Source: Patescibacteria group bacterium
GTDB taxonomy: Bacteria; Patescibacteriota; Patescibacteriia; UBA9570; JAHJKD01
DNA length: 39,967 bases
NCBI GenBank assembly: GCA_043821615.1
Contig: JBDRCS010000057.1
Coordinates: forward strand, 1-39,967
Direction: 5' to 3'
Position 1 is the stretch's first letter. Every line of letters begins with the position of its first letter. The notes under the pieces were generated by a model. It made no database searches, had not been told where the DNA came from, and saw only the letters and a list, made by a program, of their open reading frames with translations. Position numbers and translations under genes: made by a program. Below are positions 15,864-38,688 of this stretch, in pieces.

Positions 15864-17285
15864 TTATTCAGGGAATTGTTTTTTGAGTTCGTCGGAGTCT
15901 AATTTTTCTGCTTTTTTTGCAATACCTTTCCTGATTTCAATAATGTCTATTTCTTTTAATTCGGGTTTTAATTCTAAGGCTCTTTTTTCTAGATAATCCA
16001 GAGTGTTTCTTTTGGGATCATCCAGGACTTCGTCTAATAATTTATTTAAGATTATGCCAACTTCGGGACCGGGTTTCAAGCCGAGTAATTCCATTATACC
16101 ATGGCCGTCTAAAACAAGCATGTTGGTGCTAATTGGATCTTTGTGAACCTCCACTATTCTTTCCTCTAGCTCCTGAAGCTTGTAGGGTTTGGCTTTAGGA
16201 CAGGCAGAACCTAAACGATCGCCTATTCTGAGATCAATGAGGTCTTGAAGATTGTCTTTGCCAATCCTCTTGAGCAAACGACGAACGCCTGCATCAGTAA
16301 TTTCACCAATATTATAATAGAACATATGGTTTTTAATGAGGTGAAAAACCCGGTCAGTATCTTTTTTAGAAAATTTAAGACGCTGCATGATTTTGCGGGC
16401 CAGTTTGGCCGAGACTATTTCATGATTGTGAAAAGTGGCGTTAAGGCCGTCGCCTTCCTTGGTTTGAGGCTTGCCAATGTCATGTAGAAGAGCAGCCAGT
16501 TTTACTAAAGGATCATTAGTGGGAGTAAACTGCATGGAAAGCAGGGCATGCATGTAAGCAGTATAGGGATGATGCTTGTTTTGAGTGAGACCGACATTAT
16601 TTTCCAGCTCCGGCAAAATGATTGCCTGGAGGCCGGACTCCTGAAGCAGCCACATGCCTTTGAAAGGGTCGTCTGAATCTATAATTTTCATTAGTTCATC
16701 ACGGATGCGCTCGCCAGAAACATGTTTGATTAATTCTTTTTGGTCTTGAATAGCTTGGAAAGTTTTTTCTTCTATAGAAAAGTTTAGCTGAGCTGCAAAA
16801 CGGATGGCGCGCATCATGCGAAGAGCGTCTTCGGCAAAGCGTTCTTCAGGATTTCCGACAGCTCTGATTAATTTATTTTCTAAATCTTGTTTGCCTTTAA
16901 ATAAATCTATGAGATCATTGCCGTCGTAAGCCAGAGCATTTATAGTAAAGTCTCTTCTCTTTAGGTCCTCTTCTAAAGAGACACCAAACTTTACTTCATC
17001 TGGGTGGCGCTTGTCTGTGTATTTGGCTTCAGAACGATAGGTGGTGATCTCCACTTCTTCACCGTCCAGATTTACGACTACGGTGCCAAAATTATTATTG
17101 TAATAACTATTAGTAAAGGCCTTTTCGATTTCTTCGGGCAGGGCAGAAGTGGTGATGTCCCAATCTTTGGGAGCTTTGCCAATTAAAAAATCGCGCAGGC
17201 AGCCGCCTACTATATAAGCCTCATAACCACCAGCTTTAAGCTGGTTAAGGGCGAATTCTATGTGTTGGGGTAATTTGATAATCAT
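15864..17285 (-). CDS. cca: CCA-adding tRNA nucleotidyltransferase with HD domain
   Basis: GGCLRDFLIGKAPKDWDITT polymerase-beta head, RDFTINAL, LLHDIGKP HD motif. Confidence 0.85.
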   Translation of the reverse strand: MIIKLPQHIEFALNQLKAGGYEAYIVGGCLRDFLIGKAPKDWDITTSALPEEIEKAFTNSYYNNNFGTVVVNLDGEEVEITTYRSEAKYTDKRHPDEVKFGVSLEEDLKRRDFTINALAYDGNDLIDLFKGKQDLENKLIRAVGNPEERFAEDALRMMRAIRFAAQLNFSIEEKTFQAIQDQKELIKHVSGERIRDELMKIIDSDDPFKGMWLLQESGLQAIILPELENNVGLTQNKHHPYTAYMHALLSMQFTPTNDPLVKLAALLHDIGKPQTKEGDGLNATFHNHEIVSAKLARKIMQRLKFSKKDTDRVFHLIKNHMFYYNIGEITDAGVRRLLKRIGKDNLQDLIDLRIGDRLGSACPKAKPYKLQELEERIVEVHKDPISTNMLVLDGHGIMELLGLKPGPEVGIILNKLLDEVLDDPKRNTLDYLEKRALELKPELKEIDIIEIRKGIAKKAEKLDSDELKKQFPE

Positions 17286-17414
17286 CTTCTTTTTTCCGGT
17301 CTCCCACCGGCATAAAGCCGGGGGATCCCTACAATTAGTAAATTTTGGGAACCGCCGGGTTTATCCGGGTTGGTTCACAAAATCATAGGTAAATAATACC
17401 ATACCAAATATGCA

Positions 17415-17443
17415 TTGACTATGTAAAGATTTTCTGGTAGATT
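17415..17443 (+). promoter_or_regulatory. Promoter TTGACT-17-TGgTAGATT for the tRNA-Arg unit
   Basis: TTGACT at 17415-17420, 17-nt spacer, TAGATT at 17438-17443 preceded by TGG. Confidence 0.55.
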
Positions 17444-17472
17444 ATTAGGGTTAATTTTATTTGAGCCCTCGT

Positions 17473-17580
17473 ATCTACTATGCCCTCGCAAAGCCTCGGG
17501 CTTCGTAGGATACTATCTATAATTACAATTTATTAGATAGCATTCTTCGAAGCTCTGATTCTTATCAGAGCGAAGTAGAT
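17473..17580 (+). repeat. tRNA-linked structured spacer element, copy A (upstream of tRNA-Arg)
   Basis: Shares ATCTACT..GCCCTC..GGGCTTCG.AGGAT..GAAGCTCTG..CAGAGCG.AGTA blocks with 18983-19101. Hairpins sit at the same positions and carry compensatory changes. Confidence 0.7.
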
Positions 17581-17652
17581 GCCCTCGTAGTTCAATGGAT
17601 AGAACAGCGGCCTTCTAAGCCGCGGATGTAGGTTCGATTCCTGCCGAGGGTA
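17581..17652 (+). tRNA. tRNA-Arg (anticodon TCT)
   Basis: Cloverleaf by hand. Acceptor GCCCTCG/CGAGGGT, D arm GTTC/GAAC, anticodon stem GCGGC/GCCGC with loop CTTCTAA, T arm GTAGG-TTCGATT-CCTGC, discriminator A. No encoded CCA. Confidence 0.9.
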
Positions 17653-17655
17653 CAT

Positions 17656-18849
17656 ATGCCAGAACAGGAAAAAAAGAATCCGTTAGTAGAATTACCGGAA
17701 GAGACCGGAAATTTCTTAAAATTCTTAAAAAGAAATTTAGATTCACCACGTCGTCCCGAAGAAGAAAATTTAACACCCGAAGTTATAGGGGCTAAAAGAT
17801 TATTAGAATCTATGAGTTCTTTTGGCATGTTAAAAGAAGGGGGAATAGACAGAGAAAGATACGCTGAATTAGTTGGGCAAATTACTGAATTAGAGAAATC
17901 ATTACCAGGAGATTCTCCCAGCTTAGCCGTAAAAGAAATGGGCGTGGCTATGCGCGGTGGAGATGCTGAAAAATATGCTGTCTTGCAAGATGAGCTGGAT
18001 GCAATCGATCAAGTGTTGGAAGAAAAATTAGGCTTAACACCAAAAGAAACTCATGCAATGGTGGGACGTGAAGATTTTCAAGAACATGCTACTAATTTAG
18101 AAGGCGATAGAAGCAGGGCTATGAAAGAAAGGCTATTAAAAATTGAAGATCGGTTCGAACCACAAAGAAAAGGCTGGATAAAAAGAGAAGTTTTTGAAGC
18201 AGATTCAGGTTTCCCAGAACACATAGATAAAATGTTGGAGAGATTAAAAGAAGGCGTGCCTAACCGAGAAGAAATTAGACCTTTGCCAGAAAAAGGAACT
18301 TTTGAATACATGGAAGATAGCAACCCAAAAAATCCTGAGGCACCGGTGGTTTGCTATGAAAGACAAATGGTAAAAACAGATAGAGATATTGTGAGCCCAG
18401 ATTTTTCATCTTGTGCTGGAGTTGTCCTTTATAAATTAGACGATGCCGGTAAACCAACTCAGGAAACTTTATTTACTCATCTACCGCCAATGACCTTTGG
18501 TGATGGAAAGCCCTCAAATTTTGATTCTTATACGCCTGATTTTTTCAAGGAACAATTTGGGGTTGATAATTTAGATGGCTATGAAGCTAAGGTTTTTACG
18601 GGTTTGAATATTCCTCCAGATAAAATTACAGATACTATTTCCCAGATGGGAGGTAATGTAAAAACAGTTGAGCAATTACCCCGTGATATGTATACAGGAT
18701 TGATTGATGCCAAAACAAAATCTATTGCTCTAATGGGAAATCCGGAATCGCCTATCAAATTAGGTGATATGGAATTATCCTATAGAACTCAGGAAGGAAA
18801 AGTACCAATTTATTCTACAGAAAAGCAAGTACCGGCTTTTATAGAATAA
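17656..18849 (+). CDS. Hypothetical 397-aa protein wedged into the tRNA cluster
   Basis: The ATG lies 4 nt after tRNA-Arg. GAGG from the tRNA acceptor 3' strand sits 6 nt upstream. Host-like composition. The C-terminal half carries SSCAGVVLY...THLPP, a Cys/His pattern reminiscent of CheD-type deamidases (weak). Confidence 0.6.
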   Translation: MPEQEKKNPLVELPEETGNFLKFLKRNLDSPRRPEEENLTPEVIGAKRLLESMSSFGMLKEGGIDRERYAELVGQITELEKSLPGDSPSLAVKEMGVAMRGGDAEKYAVLQDELDAIDQVLEEKLGLTPKETHAMVGREDFQEHATNLEGDRSRAMKERLLKIEDRFEPQRKGWIKREVFEADSGFPEHIDKMLERLKEGVPNREEIRPLPEKGTFEYMEDSNPKNPEAPVVCYERQMVKTDRDIVSPDFSSCAGVVLYKLDDAGKPTQETLFTHLPPMTFGDGKPSNFDSYTPDFFKEQFGVDNLDGYEAKVFTGLNIPPDKITDTISQMGGNVKTVEQLPRDMYTGLIDAKTKSIALMGNPESPIKLGDMELSYRTQEGKVPIYSTEKQVPAFIE

Positions 18850-18855
18850 AAAGGC

Positions 18856-18883
18856 TAGACAAATATCAAATTGCTGGTATAAT
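18856..18883 (+). promoter_or_regulatory. Promoter TAGACA-16-TGgTATAAT for tRNA-Met/His
   Basis: TAGACA at 18856-18861 and TATAAT at 18878-18883 preceded by TGG, about 25 nt before tRNA-Met. Confidence 0.55.
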
Positions 18884-18907
18884 TGCAAAAGTGTATTTTA
18901 ACAATAT

Positions 18908-18981
18908 GGCAGGGTAGCTCAGTTGGTTAGAGCGCGGGACTCATAAGCCCGAGGTCGAGAGTTCGAATCTCTCCCCTGTCA
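18908..18981 (+). tRNA. tRNA with CAT anticodon (elongator Met or Ile2)
   Basis: Acceptor GGCAGGG/CCCTGTC (one G:U). D arm GCTC/GAGC. Anticodon loop CTCATAA. T arm GAGAG-TTCGAAT-CTCTC. The paired 1:72 position argues against an initiator. A31:G39 is mismatched. Confidence 0.85.
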
Positions 18982-18982
18982 C

Positions 18983-19101
18983 ATCTACTTCGCCCTCACT
19001 TGCGTTCGGGCTTCGAAGGATGTTCCCAAAAAGATAGATTAATATTCTACAAATGTGGGAACCTCCTACGAAGCTCTGTCGCTAGACAGAGCGTAGTACG
19101 A
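18983..19101 (+). repeat. tRNA-linked structured spacer element, copy B (between tRNA-Met and tRNA-His)
   Basis: See copy A. Stem CTTCG/CGAAG versus CTATG/CGTAG. Stem GTTCCCA/TGGGAAC versus CTATCT/AGATAG. Stem CTAC-GAA-GCTCTGTC/GACAGAGC-GTAG versus CTTC-GAA-GCTCTGAT/ATCAGAGC-GAAG. Confidence 0.7.
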
Positions 19102-19175
19102 GGTGGTAGTAGCTCAATTGGTAGAGCACTCGATTGTGGTTCGAGCGGTTGCCGGTTCAAGTCCGGTCTACCACC
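19102..19175 (+). tRNA. tRNA-His (anticodon GTG) with encoded G-1
   Basis: An extra 5' G pairs with discriminator C. Acceptor GTGGTAG/CTACCAC. Anticodon stem CTCGA/TCGAG with loop TTGTGGT. T arm GCCGG-TTCAAGT-CCGGT. Confidence 0.9.
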
Positions 19176-19186
19176 CAAAGTTAGAA

Positions 19187-19212
19187 ACACCTGGAATTTC
19201 CAGGTGTTTTTT
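19187..19212 (+). terminator. Rho-independent terminator after tRNA-His
   Basis: ACACCTGG AATTT CCAGGTGT TTTTT. Confidence 0.8.
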
Positions 19213-19220
19213 GATATAAT
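19212..19220 (+). promoter_or_regulatory. Extended -10 TGaTATAAT, 6 nt before ATG 19227 (leaderless candidate)
   Basis: TATAAT at 19215-19220 preceded by TGA. The ATG of the GNAT gene is at 19227. Confidence 0.45.
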
Positions 19221-19226
19221 TTTATT

Positions 19227-19655
19227 ATGATTACAATAAGCCATGCTAAATTAAAAGATATTAAGGCTTGTATTAAAATTGATAAAAGCCTTAAAGAGAA
19301 AATTAATCGCCAGTTTCTTAAAGAAGCAATATTATCTAACAGAGTATTTATTGCCAAAGAAAAAAATGAAATAGCAGGATACTTAATATTTAATATTTTA
19401 TGGGGAGAGATTCCTTTTATTGAATTTATTAAAATTACTCCAGCTTATCAACGACAACTGATAGGAACTAACTTGATAAAAAAAATTGAAAATAAATTTA
19501 AAAAATTAGGTTTTAAATTTCTCTATAGTTCAACTTCGAGAAAAAATAAAAAATCAATAACTTTTCATAAAGCAACTGGTTTTAAAAAATGTGGCGATGT
19601 AGAATTAGATAAAGAAAAGGAAATATTTTTCAAGAAAAAAATAAATAAACAATGA
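19227..19655 (+). CDS. GNAT family N-acetyltransferase
   Basis: 142 aa. Motif-A-like YQRQLIGTNLIKKIENKFKKLGF. Overlaps the next gene by 4 nt (ATGA). Confidence 0.7.
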   Translation: MITISHAKLKDIKACIKIDKSLKEKINRQFLKEAILSNRVFIAKEKNEIAGYLIFNILWGEIPFIEFIKITPAYQRQLIGTNLIKKIENKFKKLGFKFLYSSTSRKNKKSITFHKATGFKKCGDVELDKEKEIFFKKKINKQ

Positions 19656-20035
19656 AAGTCCATCATTTAGCAATATCGATAAAAGATTTGGAAAAATCAG
19701 TCTCTTTTTATGCTAAATATTTTGATTTCAAGGATATCCAAAGATTTACCAAGACAGAATGGGAAGGAGAGGCGGCGATTCTTGATTTATATGGATTCAA
19801 ACTGGAAATTTTCCAATTTCACAATGCGATTGATAAAAAAGATGATTTATCAAATCTTGAAGTGATTGGCTTGAAACATATCAGCATTGAGGTTGATGAT
19901 GTTGAGAGTAAATATATAGAATTAAAGGAAAAGGGAATTGATATTGATAAACCTGAAAAAGGAACTACATGTGCCTGGTTTTGTTTTCTACGAGACCCAG
20001 ATGGCATTCCTATTGAATTATATGAATCTAAATAA
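19652..20035 (+). CDS. VOC/glyoxalase I family protein
   Basis: 127 aa. HLAISIKDLEKSVSFY ... LKHISIEVDD ... FLRDPDGIPIELYE, the paired beta-alpha-beta-beta-beta pattern. Confidence 0.75.
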   Translation: MKVHHLAISIKDLEKSVSFYAKYFDFKDIQRFTKTEWEGEAAILDLYGFKLEIFQFHNAIDKKDDLSNLEVIGLKHISIEVDDVESKYIELKEKGIDIDKPEKGTTCAWFCFLRDPDGIPIELYESK

Positions 20036-20058
20036 AATAATTAATAATTATTGAAAAT

Positions 20059-20532
20059 ATGGTAGATGTTGAAAAATATTTACAATCCCACGATATAAAA
20101 TATGCACCTCATAAACATCCTGCTGTTTTTACCTGCGATGAAGCAGAAAAGCATTGCGCAGATGTTCCAGGAATTCCTGGTAAGAATTTATTTTTGAAAA
20201 ATAAAGGGGGTAAGAGATATTTTTTAGTTGTCCTTCCTGCTTCTAAACGAGCTGATTTAAAAAAAATTGCTAAAATAGTTGGTGAGAGTAAAGTCAGCTT
20301 TGCTAATAGTGAAGCCTTGAAAGAAAAATTAGACCTAGAACCTGGCTCTGTTTCTCCTTTTGGATTATTAAATGATGTTCAGCATGAAGTGGAAGTATAT
20401 ATTGATAAAGATATATATGATGCGAATATAGTAAATTTTCATCCCAAACGTAATACTGCTTCTTTGGAATTAACAGGCGAGATGTTTCGTAAATATTTAA
20501 AAACAATAGAAAATAAAGTTCAAATAATCTAA
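20059..20532 (+). CDS. YbaK/ProX-type aminoacyl-tRNA trans-editing domain protein
   Basis: 157 aa. KNLFLKNKGGKRYFLVVL ... GSVSPFGL motif typical of the YbaK/prolyl-tRNA-synthetase-associated domain. Confidence 0.75.
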   Translation: MVDVEKYLQSHDIKYAPHKHPAVFTCDEAEKHCADVPGIPGKNLFLKNKGGKRYFLVVLPASKRADLKKIAKIVGESKVSFANSEALKEKLDLEPGSVSPFGLLNDVQHEVEVYIDKDIYDANIVNFHPKRNTASLELTGEMFRKYLKTIENKVQII

Positions 20533-25815: not shown

Positions 25816-25841
25816 ACTAATAAAAAAATCGTATTATTGTT

Positions 25842-25865
25842 AGGGGACGCAGATCTGCGTCCCCT
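25842..25865. terminator. Perfect 24-nt palindrome between convergent genes
   Basis: AGGGGACGCAGA/TCTGCGTCCCCT is an exact reverse complement. There is no adjacent U-tract, so terminator function is uncertain. Confidence 0.5.
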
Positions 25866-25898
25866 ACACCAAATAAATCCGATTTTTTTATTTGAGTT

Positions 25899-38039: not shown

Positions 38040-38688
38040 AGGGAGATATTATATACCGAATTGAGCTTGTCTTCAAGTGATGTTTTTTATAATTATTAAA
38101 CGTATAATTTAATTTTTGATCAAATTGCTCTTCATCATCCATAATTTCTTTCCATGATTCATGACGCCAAATGCGTTGTCTTAATTTAATTATATTTAAT
38201 GTCTCTTGGGTTATGGACCGCGGGCAACACGGAGGCTGCCCGCTAACTGGATTTGAGGTTAGCCCCGGGCCTCTGTGCCCGGGGCGGGAATTTATAAACA
38301 TATTTTCATTTATTCGCGACGAGCACAGAGGCTCGCCGCTAACGTTATCTATTGGAAATTTTTTACAAAAACAATTTTTACCACAAACATATTCATAATC
38401 CAAATTTTCAATATTGTTTATATAAAATAACAATTGATTGGTTGAATAACTTTTCAAATCATGTTCAAAATTTTCAATATCAATCCCTTTAACGAATTTT
38501 ACCATTAAATTAAAATGGCAAGGCATAATTGAATATGAATAAATTTTAAAATCATACTTGGAATAATAATAAAATAAATAATCCTCGATTAAACTACTTA
38601 AAATGTAACTTGAAAAAATTGGGATTTTTTTATATGTCGAAAAAATTAAGTAATAAATTCGATTATTTTTTAATAAATATTTACTCAT
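38005..38688 (-). CDS. Divergent IS200/COG1943-type HUH (Y1) transposase-like protein, probably inactive
   Basis: IYSYSIMPCHFNLMV aligns with the family's MPNH(I/F)HLL motif, so HUH reads H-F-N here. The C-terminal QRIWRHESWKEIMDDEEQFDQKLNYTFNNYKKH resembles WQR.yYEHiiRne..l..i..Yi.nNP but lacks the Tyr. Start taken at MSKYLL (ATG 38688), downstream of the tsaD stop. Confidence 0.4.
   Translation of the reverse strand: MSKYLLKNNRIYYLIFSTYKKIPIFSSYILSSLIEDYLFYYYSKYDFKIYSYSIMPCHFNLMVKFVKGIDIENFEHDLKSYSTNQLLFYINNIENLDYEYVCGKNCFCKKFPIDNVSGEPLCSSRINENMFINSRPGHRGPGLTSNPVSGQPPCCPRSITQETLNIIKLRQRIWRHESWKEIMDDEEQFDQKLNYTFNNYKKHHLKTSSIRYIISPYEIPRQNIRRI

Follow-up and report, generated by a model that had tools for sequence, protein, structure and literature searches.

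MITEs and the Rickettsia palindromic elements are small, non-coding sequences with inverted ends and a target duplication, tolerated in functional genes and mobilised in trans. REP/REPIN sequences are mobilised by RAYT Y1 transposases, and free-standing GIY-YIG homing endonucleases, of which the phage T4 Seg enzymes are an example, lie next to tRNA genes. Stable RNAs carry inserts as well. The intervening sequences (IVS) of 23S rRNA (helix 25 and helix 45; Salmonella, Coxiella, Leptospira and others) are, in published summaries, self-pairing inserts of about 100 nt or longer at the tips of stable-RNA helices, sporadic in distribution. Passages of two reports present them as presumed selfish elements that spread horizontally, and as removed by RNase III without religation (PMC11270868, PMC4990558). 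For CPR bacteria, the main text of Tsurumaki et al. 2024 reports many short (<200 bp), ORF-less, non-intron 23S inserts at sites 23IS2 and 23IS4 and suggests that they are IVS-like; the word 'tRNA' occurs 0 times in it, supplements aside (PMC11270868). Oddly extended RNase P RNA helices, which make the gene hard to detect, are also mentioned for CPR in a passage of PMC8172020.

Here we describe a family that shares features with several of these systems. The window, meaning the whole stretch of DNA that was analysed, comprises 39,967 nucleotides of contig JBDRCS010000057.1 from a Patescibacteria group bacterium (GCA_043821615.1; genome of 0.97 Mb, 75% complete). It holds two copies, elements A and B (Table 1), and a third lies 5' of tRNA-Gln on contig C11 of the same genome. 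The family is spread through the Patescibacteria (CPR) and nearly confined to positions in or against stable-RNA genes. We consider it probable that the three copies belong to a family of small non-coding, non-autonomous, REPIN/IVS-like mobile palindromes of about 100-105 nt, which are transcribed together with stable RNAs and lost in normal end processing. A literature search outside subscription journals and supplements returned no description of the family, or of elements flush with CPR tRNA ends.

Table 1. Positions of elements A and B and of adjoining features in the window
Feature	Position	Strand	Description and basis
Promoter-like site	17415..17443	+	TTGACT, 17-nt spacer, TAGATT, TG before -10; consensus scan
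Duplicate of tRNA-Arg nt 1-9 (GCCCTCGTA)	17465..17473	+	directly 5' of element A
Element A, 108 nt	17473..17580	+	homology to B, folding, covariance model 87.4 bits
Element A, left hairpin	about 17473-17511	+	
Element A, middle hairpin	about 17512-17542	+	variable
Element A, right hairpin	about 17543-17580	+	
tRNA-Arg (tct)	17581..17653	+	ARAGORN + Rfam
Promoter-like site	18856..18883	+	TAGACA, 16-nt spacer, TATAAT, TG; 11/12 matches; consensus scan
tRNA-Met (cat)	18908..18982	+	ARAGORN + Rfam
Element B, 119 nt	18983..19101	+	homology to A, folding, covariance model 87.3 bits
tRNA-His (gtg)	19102..19176	+	genome-encoded G-1 at 19102; body 19103-19176 (ARAGORN, Rfam)

A first-pass annotation of this DNA had placed the ends of both elements at tRNA 5' ends, and this holds at the level of single bases. 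Element A ends at base -1 of tRNA-Arg, since ARAGORN and Rfam put that tRNA at 17581-17653, and the last base of element B immediately precedes the G-1 of tRNA-His, which is base 19102 in the tRNA placement. B also starts one to two bases past the tRNA-Met discriminator and wholly occupies the Met-His spacer. Both elements are flush with mature tRNA ends. The promoter-like site at 17415-17443 is predicted to drive the upstream tRNA fragment, element A and tRNA-Arg as a single transcript; its TTGACT...TAGnTT box also aligns in two other genomes, L078 and G004. The site at 18856-18883 is the putative promoter of a unit made of tRNA-Met, element B and tRNA-His, so that tRNA-Met, as had been noted, has a promoter-like site of its own and no element 5' of it. 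An inverted repeat with a T-run lies 3' of tRNA-His, at about 19186-19212; read from the letters, and not listed by the consensus scan, it looks like a terminator. The 397-aa ORF at 17656-18849 was considered as a partner gene: it matched no Pfam family, and it is not tied to the element because an ORF with this start is also present in the element-free L078. Among DNA contigs from four runs, one related organism shows an interval of 195 nt, instead of 295 nt, from the CCA-enzyme gene to tRNA-Arg. The contigs of these runs are interrupted at the elements.

The relationship and the folding proposed for A and B are well borne out. The two are identical in 78% of the columns of a MAFFT alignment, which recovered the shared blocks listed earlier, and both fold far more stably than shuffles that preserve dinucleotides (z = -6.45 and z = -6.59; 0/200 shuffles as good). 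RNAalifold, run on two MAFFT alignments (17 and 60 copies), independently gives the three hairpins of the first-pass annotation, in tandem, as the family consensus: CTATG/CGTAG versus CTTCG/CGAAG, a variable middle hairpin and a bulged GCTCTG.. stem. Over the 60 copies this fold pairs 89.8% of the cells; shifting the partners by 1-3 columns lowers the figure to 33-44%. In 26 of the 28 pairs both sides have changed, and the observed values were reached by 0/500 shuffles; the covariation exceeds the controls. Even between copies at one tRNA (tRNA-Arg, window versus G004), the helices keep pairing through compensatory changes. The four-helix junction drawn in the first-pass annotation fared less well. 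Its terminal helix, ATCTACT/AGTAGAT, is perfect over 7 bp in A and part of the MFE fold there, and the junction may form in A as an alternative fold; as a family structure it was rejected on the 60-copy pairing counts, which three hairpins fit better. The terminal helix pairs in 77.9% of the cells, whereas the outer stems pair in 90.0% (left hairpin) and 89.6% (right hairpin), and alignment column 6 pairs with column 70 in 53/60 copies and with column 206 in 29/60.

The two outer arms also resemble each other. A left-arm profile matches the reverse strand of right arms (E = 7e-6, 0.007 and 0.022), the converse is also true, and the covariance model scores both strands at each copy. The apparent architecture is one of left and right arms that are mutual inverted copies, each a hairpin, with a variable AT-rich hairpin between them. 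CGWAG borders the right hairpin in nearly all of the 60 copies (CGWAG-stem-loop-stem-CGWAG). As described in passages of PMC3733652, REP/REPIN likewise have two inverted hairpin units in a doublet of about 100 nt, with compensatory changes in the stems; covariation backs both outer hairpins of the present family. The G(T/A)AG motif at the foot of the right hairpin may correspond to the GTAG tag of REP. Element A has GAAG, and B has GAAG at the 5' foot and GTAG at the 3' foot; GAAG is absent from the tag variants listed in that source (PMC3733652). Unlike REPINs, the elements are few, from 1 to about 7 per genome, lie inside stable-RNA transcription units instead of being extragenic, and have target duplications.

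Rfam 15 at gathering threshold matched only the three tRNAs in the searched stretch and no element family. At E up to 10 over 17350-19250, the elements were overlapped solely by chance-level microRNA/sRNA matches far below the cut-offs. Further copies and conservation in relatives were found with covariance models. Model R1 detects the 3 copies of the window's genome, and 12 of 100 relatives have an R1 match as well. For model R2 the genomes with matches number 43 of 150 in the class sample (E <= 1e-3) and 29 of 150 in the phylum sample (E <= 1e-5), at up to about 7 places per genome. A pattern scan was unusable, as specific patterns matched at most 7/60 known copies and those matching 17/60 and 25/60 were unspecific. 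We classified 84 best-strand copies by host (class search at roughly E <=2e-5; 12 loci of the phylum search plus the G227 regions). By a crude test, copies within one genome resemble each other: 15 of 36 have their nearest neighbour there, and the other 21 are closest to a copy from another genome. Neither A nor one GC-rich family member matched phage records by blastn.

Among the 84 copies, 49 flank tRNAs, six lie at the 3' end of tmRNA, 11 are in RNase P RNA (nine at Rfam-found loci and two recognised by the adjacent GAGGAAAGUCC box alone), nine are in or beside 23S rRNA and one is upstream of 16S rRNA; eight have no assigned host. Across different genomes, more than 15 different tRNA species have the element 5' of them, while some copies fill inter-tRNA spacers and others abut tRNA 3' ends. 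The idea that copies always abut tRNA 5' ends is therefore refuted by those at tRNA and tmRNA 3' ends, in spacers, in RNase P RNA and in 23S rRNA. A tRNA-specific structured leader was likewise rejected: 35 of the 84 copies have no adjoining tRNA, some of the tRNA-linked ones are 3' or antisense, and the syntenic tRNA-Arg of L078 has no copy. Seven copies are within 23S rRNA (L012, L028, L030, L033, L065, L067 and L071), and that of L033 is in what we take, by the E. coli sequence, to be the helix-25 site. Unlike the 23S IVS, A and B adjoin tRNAs and are not in rRNA, although their relatives do lie in 23S rRNA, and the family extends to tRNA and tmRNA ends and to RNase P RNA. The 23S copies are probably among the short CPR inserts of PMC11270868, for which passages of that report, in contrast to what is found here, give no common structure, family definition or link with RNase P RNA.

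In a set of 27 copies, the element precedes a tRNA, or a sequence resembling a tRNA 5' end, and lacks a tRNA immediately before it. All 27 have one orientation; the junctions at tRNA 5' ends fall exactly at +1. On the other side of the element, 20 of the 27 carry a flush copy of the first bases of the tRNA (>=9 nt, <=1 mismatch), in two the copy is displaced by 4 or 13 nt, in three it has 2-3 mismatches, and in two it is absent. The duplications at these tRNA 5' sites measure 9-14 nt, about the first 12 nt of the tRNA. In the remaining 39 copies of set 1 the flank matches are <=8 nt, except in L038, where 23-25 nt of the 3' end of tRNA-Leu are repeated past the element. The duplication at tRNA 5' ends is a further difference from the 23S IVS, and to our knowledge none of about 12 nt has been described for IVS.

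A filled and an empty site can be compared at tRNA-Arg. L078, the closest relative by the adjacent CCA-adding enzyme (77% amino-acid identity), shares the promoter box, the leader and tRNA-Arg(tct) but not the element; its site is empty. The layout in the window and in G004 is GCCCTCGTAGTT, the element and GCCCTCGTAGTT again, the window having since lost 4 nt. On this comparison, the stretch at 17465..17473 would be the remnant of a 12-nt target duplication of which G004 still has 12 nt; base 17473 is common to the GCCCTCGTA duplicate and, with the bounds drawn in the first-pass annotation, to element A. At element B we looked for a target duplication and none is present; in G004 the Met-His spacer is an 18-nt hairpin where the window has B. 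Duplications are also absent for the copies inside RNase P RNA or 23S rRNA. A single insertion mechanism may not explain all sites, because B and the copies in RNase P RNA and 23S rRNA have no target duplication.

The inverted termini and the target duplication (20 of the 27 flush, five displaced or degenerate) are those of a MITE. In contrast to MITEs and the Rickettsia palindromic elements, the junctions are mature RNA termini and insertion at tRNA 5' ends is orientation-specific. No transposase-coding parent with matching ends, and no autonomous partner, was found in the window's genome. Half-element profiles detected no split halves round a gene there and no arms elsewhere in it. Y1_Tnp homologues occur in 90 of the 150 class genomes, with 8 matches in the window's genome, where no Y1 gene flanked by element arms was seen. 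A Y1/RAYT transposase was rejected as the driver, as its presence is not associated with the element (29/43 element-positive versus 61/107 element-negative genomes), which is another difference from REPIN. G062, a genome in one contig listed as 100% complete, has element copies and neither RVT_1 nor Y1_Tnp. Four GIY-YIG ORFs of the window's genome end 4-17 nt 5' of tRNA genes. At two of the four loci, an exact 11- or 14-nt duplicate of the 5' end of the tRNA lies some 360 nt before it, and a third has a longer tRNA fragment (about nt 1-33, read by eye). These cassettes repeat the layout of fragment, insert and intact tRNA, which is a lead only to a connection with the element; unlike them, the element has no ORF, and it has no sequence similarity to them.

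The first-pass annotation had left the choice between a leader or spacer RNA and a mobile element that targets tRNA 5' ends. It is supported in part, its target range having proved too narrow. Mobility is favoured because of the filled/empty tRNA-Arg pair, the duplications of about 12 nt and the more than 15 tRNA species concerned, and is better supported than a pre-tRNA leader. The inverted arms, the two orientations relative to the host RNA and the likeness of copies within a genome also speak for it. According to this reading, element A would be transcribed with tRNA-Arg from the 17415-17443 site as part of the precursor, and element B as the Met-His spacer. Each is predicted to fold on itself into three hairpins (in A optionally into the four-way junction), and the tRNA fold would therefore not be invaded. 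Ordinary end processing would discard the element, with RNase P cutting at 17580/17581 and 19101/19102 and 3' trimming of tRNA-Met freeing the other end of B; RNase P RNA and RNase III are both encoded in the genome. By analogy with the 23S IVS, copies at helix tips of RNase P RNA or 23S rRNA may be tolerated or cut out by RNase III. Spread at tRNA 5' ends would proceed by orientation-specific insertion at the +1 junction with duplication of about 12 nt, which is the pattern seen at these sites. Besides the lack of a partner gene, of a link with RVT_1 or Y1_Tnp and of duplications at some sites, and the 21 of 36 nearest neighbours in other genomes, two observations count against the mobile reading: exact abutment to mature RNA ends is unexpected for an ordinary DNA transposon, and compensatory changes at the same tRNA might just as well reflect a need of the host for the fold.

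The latter point leads to the possibility, which we regard as unlikely, that the element is a host-adapted processing or insulator module, i.e. a structured leader, spacer or helix extension used by the cell. It could provide a defined entry site for RNase III or RNase P, or guard against misfolding of the precursor, and its spread would be the reuse of a useful module. The strong, phylum-wide compensatory conservation of all helices and the coincidence of the boundaries with mature RNA ends agree with such a function. So do the identical helix positions of RNase P RNA that carry the element in several families, and the presence in the window's genome of both RNase III (C89:10686-11081) and RNase P RNA (on C70). 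However, the distribution is sporadic (43/150 and 29/150 genomes), the tRNAs that carry the element differ between genomes, the closest relative L078 does without it at tRNA-Arg, and the RNase P RNA of the window's genome has no copy. Both orientations relative to the host RNA occur, as in the mirror-orientation copy in an RNase P RNA hairpin loop of L045 and the antisense copies that fill inter-tRNA spacers in L077; only the shape is therefore kept, not the RNA sequence. In the predicted fold of the whole transcript, moreover, the upstream GCCCTCGTA fragment rivals the true 5' strand for the 3' strand of the acceptor, which would look like a cost and not like design.

The exact junctions invite a different thought, which we hold to be rather improbable: that they are set by mature RNA ends and not by DNA sequence, the mobile module recognising or using processed stable-RNA termini. 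These would be tRNA +1, the 3' ends of tRNA and tmRNA, and the tips of helices in RNase P RNA and rRNA. Possible routes are an R-loop of the mature RNA, RNA-templated repair of a break, or ligation to RNase P or RNase Z products that are then copied into DNA. The corresponding variant of the mobile-element reading, with the element joined to processed RNA termini (e.g. its 3'-OH to the tRNA 5'-phosphate made by RNase P) and re-entering the genome through cDNA or RNA-templated repair, is in our view very unlikely. It would account for the junctions exactly at tRNA +1, for the strict orientation in all 27 tRNA 5' cases, and for the other junctions, which lie 0-3 nt from tRNA or tmRNA 3' ends, several starting with CCA. 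It would also suit the upstream tRNA fragments, which end in or next to tRNA loops (about nt 12, 21-23 and 33-35). Against it, a reverse transcriptase was rejected as the driver because RVT_1 is not associated with the element (13/43 element-positive versus 52/107 element-negative genomes) and G062 has none. The sole reverse transcriptase of the window's genome, on C11, looks like a DGR enzyme by gene order and repeats, RVT_1 being the only family tested. Both orientations occur at other sites, and the model requires several unobserved steps. A stable trans-acting small RNA of about 110 nt, released by RNase P and by 3' processing of the upstream tRNA and with the middle hairpin as its specificity region, is highly improbable. 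In its favour, two tRNA processing sites delimit B exactly, and the family keeps its structure with a middle hairpin that varies. Against it, a large number of copies lie within rRNA or RNase P RNA or run antisense to the host transcript, from which such an RNA would not be released, and the middle hairpin showed no conserved stretch of unpaired bases.

With mobile palindromes co-transcribed with stable RNAs as the preferred reading, one structured family links the short unexplained 23S inserts of CPR, as presented in passages of PMC11270868, with the extended RNase P RNA helices mentioned in PMC8172020. The same family also colonises tRNA and tmRNA flanks, and the searchable model R2 could improve the annotation of RNase P RNA, rRNA and tRNA in CPR genomes. 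The duplication of about 12 nt, the exact +1 junction and the filled/empty pair together make the movement of IVS-like elements open to experiment. Targeting of RNA termini, if true, would be a new gene-targeting mode for a bacterial element and would supply a way for rRNA intervening sequences to spread, a matter that has long lacked an explanation. The element seems to persist in the stable-RNA genes of these tiny groundwater bacteria because the cell trims it together with the RNA ends. The tRNA genes of reduced genomes would in this way be landing pads, at which inserts survive only if the gene is regenerated.

The genome carrying the window (G000; 0.97 Mb in 97 contigs, numbered C, 39% GC) is 75% complete. 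The nearest relatives of its CCA-adding enzyme belong to Patescibacteria group, Falkowbacteria, Parcubacteria and Paceibacterota, and the host organism is therefore a CPR bacterium. CCA is encoded in none of the three tRNAs of the window, and the CCA-adding enzyme gene adjoins them divergently. The 397-aa ORF has an ORF beginning at the matching position in L078, a relative without the element at tRNA-Arg, and is missing from G004, a relative with the element there, in which tRNA-Arg, tRNA-Met and tRNA-His are contiguous.

Features of the window and of other G000 contigs (window coordinates unless a contig is named)
Feature	Location	Strand	Remarks
CCA-adding enzyme gene	15864-17285	-	divergent neighbour of tRNA-Arg unit
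Promoter-like site	17415-17443		predicted; precedes element A
Element A	17473-17580		last base is -1 of tRNA-Arg
tRNA-Arg(tct)	17581-17653		ARAGORN and Rfam agree
397-aa ORF	17656-18849	+	begins 3 nt past tRNA-Arg; no Pfam family
Promoter-like site	18856-18883		predicted; precedes tRNA-Met
tRNA-Met(cat)	18908-18982		ARAGORN and Rfam agree
Element B	18983-19101		spans tRNA-Met 3' end to tRNA-His G-1
tRNA-His(gtg)	19103-19176		encoded G-1 at 19102; ARAGORN and Rfam agree
Y1_Tnp matches / GTAG palindromes	38332-38658; ~25840-25867; C96, C25, C44, C86, C78, C61	- (38332-38658)	
DGR-like cassette (L004, L020)	C11 ~17920-20460		0.4-2.9 kb downstream of tRNA-Gln copy
GIY-YIG ORF (L158)	C12:2714-3055		before tRNA-Trp
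GIY-YIG ORF (L159)	C12:4227-4472		before tRNA-Tyr
GIY-YIG ORF (L160)	C40:950-1189		before tRNA-Leu(tag)
GIY-YIG ORF (L161)	C55:2734-2988		before tRNA-Ser(cga)

Elements A and B are alike, as the first-pass annotation had claimed: they align with 78% column identity and contain the sequence blocks that it listed. Folding compared with dinucleotide shuffles gave z = -6.45 for A and -6.59 for B. Of the checks it had proposed, the Rfam scan matched neither element to a family, and the search for further copies found them both in G000 and in related genomes. Inspection of 130 nt of upstream sequence at each of the 44 G000 tRNAs revealed a third copy, which directly abuts tRNA-Gln(ctg) on C11, and a covariance model built from these three copies (R1) detected no other in this genome. 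R1 matched 12 of 100 relatives. A second model (R2), built from 17 copies, was run on samples of 150 other genomes of the class, of which 43 matched (E <= 1e-3), and 150 of the phylum, of which 29 matched (E <= 1e-5); a single one-contig genome, G227, has about seven places.

Hosts were classified for the stronger R2 matches, 84 on their best strand (63 + 21), and checked with ARAGORN and Rfam. Beside tRNAs lie 49 copies, directly 5', directly 3' or end-to-end in inter-tRNA spacers; six directly follow the tmRNA 3' end, 11 are inside RNase P RNA (nine at Rfam-detected loci, two placed solely by the adjacent GAGGAAAGUCC box), nine are in or beside 23S rRNA, one is ~385 nt upstream of 16S rRNA, and eight have no assigned host gene. 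Copies are thus not always at tRNA 5' ends, and the element is not a tRNA-specific leader. In one RNase P RNA gene (L045), the Rfam alignment shows the element as a ~105-nt insert in a hairpin loop; this hairpin immediately precedes GUAAGGGUGAAAA and would be P12 by comparison with the E. coli RNA. A second copy in this gene sits directly before GAGGAAAGUCC, presumably the P3 position. A 23S rRNA gene holding two element copies (L033, genome G165) also has a group I intron (2074-2516; Rfam, 66.5 bits). By a crude identity measure, the nearest neighbour of 15 of 36 copies came from the same genome, which fits spread or gene conversion inside a genome. Many RNase P copies are closest to a copy at the equivalent site in another genome, which indicates vertical descent.

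RNAfold predicts a four-way junction for A, the cloverleaf of the first-pass annotation, and in a 17-copy MAFFT alignment this fold pairs 85.6% of cells, with both-side changes in 18 of 27 pairs. RNAalifold on 17 and 60 copies, using MAFFT alignments not fitted to any structure, returned tandem hairpins instead. In the left hairpin, a pyrimidine-rich internal loop separates the outer stem from a short inner stem with a ~12-nt loop; the middle one is variable and AT-rich; in the right one, a purine-rich CGWAG/CGWAG internal loop lies between the outer stem and a 7-8-bp stem capped by a short loop. Over 60 copies, the three hairpins pair 89.8% of cells (33-44% in slid controls) with a covariation score of 0.555 and both-side changes in 26 of 28 pairs, a level reached by none of 500 shuffles, so the three hairpins and compensatory changes proposed earlier were correct. 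The four-way junction was rejected as the family fold, since on the same copies it is lower in both pairing (85.7%) and covariation (0.418), and its terminal helix, paired in 77.9% of cells, falls short of the outer stems of the left (90.0%) and right (89.6%) hairpins. It is an isomer open to A: either fold is possible where the outer stems are equal in sequence, as in A, and where they are unlike, as in L022 and L077, the hairpin array alone can form. The left-arm profile matches the reverse strand of right arms and vice versa; by these profiles each arm is an inverted copy of the other, and for this reason the models score both strands everywhere.

A repeat of the tRNA 5' end marks most copies that lie 5' of a tRNA and have no other tRNA directly upstream: 25 of 27 are preceded by a duplicate of the first nucleotides of the following tRNA. 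The duplicate is at least 9 nt (at most one mismatch), flush with the element and mostly ending at tRNA position 12 in 20 copies, is displaced by 4 or 13 nt in two and carries 2-3 mismatches in three; two copies have none. It is GCCCTCGTA (17465-17473) at A and 13 nt of tRNA-Gln at the C11 copy. All 27 have one orientation relative to the tRNA, the last element base abutting +1, a uniformity to be read with caution since most of the copies behind the models were of this type. For comparison within the data set, flank repeats of the other 39 copies in the first batch examined never exceed 8 nt, except at L038, where the pattern is mirrored: the element directly follows tRNA-Leu and precedes a repeat of its last 23-25 nt. 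Some loci have nested fragments, for example nt 1-12, element, nt 1-21 with a short GC-rich insert, and intact tRNA. Element B has no duplication; the Met-His spacer of G004 is an 18-nt hairpin, and on this comparison B has taken the place of such a hairpin. Within RNase P RNA and rRNA, too, the element replaces a helix tip, and the repeat is absent.

The clearest evidence for insertion is the filled/empty pair at tRNA-Arg. L078, the closest relative by CCA enzyme (77% identity), shares the divergent arrangement and the TTGACT...TAGnTT box with the window and has a near-identical tRNA-Arg(tct) behind a leader of similar length, but no element. In the window and in G004 the element stands between two copies of the 12-nt box, of which the upstream one in the window has lost 4 nt. 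In the predicted fold of the full pre-tRNA-Arg, the upstream fragment can displace the true 5' strand of the acceptor stem, a likely cost to the precursor. This cost, and a fragment of 9 nt in the window, 12 nt in G004 and mismatched at other loci, are compatible with a decaying scar.

Some leftover tRNA 5' fragments are interrupted by a GC-rich palindrome of 19-20 nt (about CCTGCCTGCCGGCAGGCAGG) or by related CCTGCCCGCC motifs, on C40 upstream of tRNA-Leu(tag), at L050 (genome G126) and in tRNA leaders of C12 and C13; at L007 and L048, a matching sequence past the tRNA could pair with the palindrome across the whole tRNA. On C17 (1650-2060), two long, similar GC-rich leaders upstream of tRNA-Ile(gat) and tRNA-Phe(gaa), with the common pattern ...TGCCCGG...GGTTCA..GAACG.AGT...GAAACGCC, could represent a further structured spacer family at tRNA genes. 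Contigs with these GC-rich leaders have higher GC and may belong to a different organism that was binned with G000.

The search for a mobilising enzyme found no link with reverse transcriptase (RVT_1, in 13 of 43 element-positive versus 52 of 107 element-negative class genomes) or with Y1_Tnp (29 of 43 versus 61 of 107). G062, 100% complete in one contig, has element copies and lacks both. No half-elements flank a gene in G000, and phage records gave no match. The sole reverse transcriptase of G000, 333 aa, lies 2 kb from the C11 copy. Its size, a small adjacent ORF on the opposite strand and a pair of near-identical repeats suggest a diversity-generating retroelement (DGR); this ORF (137 aa) is a candidate Avd-like accessory protein, and the repeats are possible template and variable regions. 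G000 has eight Y1_Tnp (IS200/RAYT-like) matches and several perfect GTAG-stem-loop-stem-CTAC palindromes, among them GTAG AGACGCGA TTAA TCGCGTCT CTAC on C19, C25 and C50 and, in the window, one whose stem is GGGACGCA. The palindromes resemble classical REPs; in sequence they are unrelated to the element. A lead comes from four small GIY-YIG ORFs (Pfam E = 6e-12 to 2e-18), each of which stops 4-17 nt short of a tRNA gene. At Tyr and Ser, an exact repeat of 11 or 14 nt from the tRNA 5' end is present ~360 nt upstream of the tRNA, and at tRNA-Leu(tag) a longer fragment, ~nt 1-33 as read by eye, precedes the ORF. These cassettes and the element share one layout of fragment, insert and intact tRNA, and a process regenerating the tRNA gene after insertion seems common to both.

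The sequence family, hosts, fold, flush junctions, duplications and empty site are demonstrated. We propose that one transcript carries A and tRNA-Arg and another carries tRNA-Met, B and tRNA-His. In these, the element would fold locally, be cut at its 3' boundary by RNase P (RNA gene on C70) and at its 5' boundary by tRNA 3' processing, and then be discarded. At helix tips of rRNA and RNase P RNA it may be either tolerated or cut out by RNase III, whose gene is on C89, by analogy with 23S intervening sequences, for which this is described in PMC11270868.

The nearest known kinds are 23S rRNA intervening sequences, short CPR rRNA-gene inserts, REP/REPIN doublets (PMC3733652) and MITEs. PMC11270868 describes short uncharacterised inserts in CPR rRNA genes, and a term search of that paper returned "tRNA" 0 times. 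No earlier account of the family was found in the literature covered, which excludes subscription journals and supplements. Apparently new are a single family with a common structure that spans tRNA, tmRNA, RNase P RNA and rRNA genes, junctions that fall exactly at the ends of mature RNAs, and the duplication of ~12 nt from the tRNA 5' end. The first-pass observation is borne out, and its reading as a pre-tRNA leader or spacer RNA or a small mobile element targeting tRNA 5' ends is partly supported: mobility stands as the better-supported reading, and tRNA specificity and the cloverleaf do not. The element is probably a selfish palindromic insert akin to known ones, with an interesting choice of targets. 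CPR RNase P RNAs with large helix extensions that needed manual refolding are reported in PMC8172020, and the element family may explain part of these.
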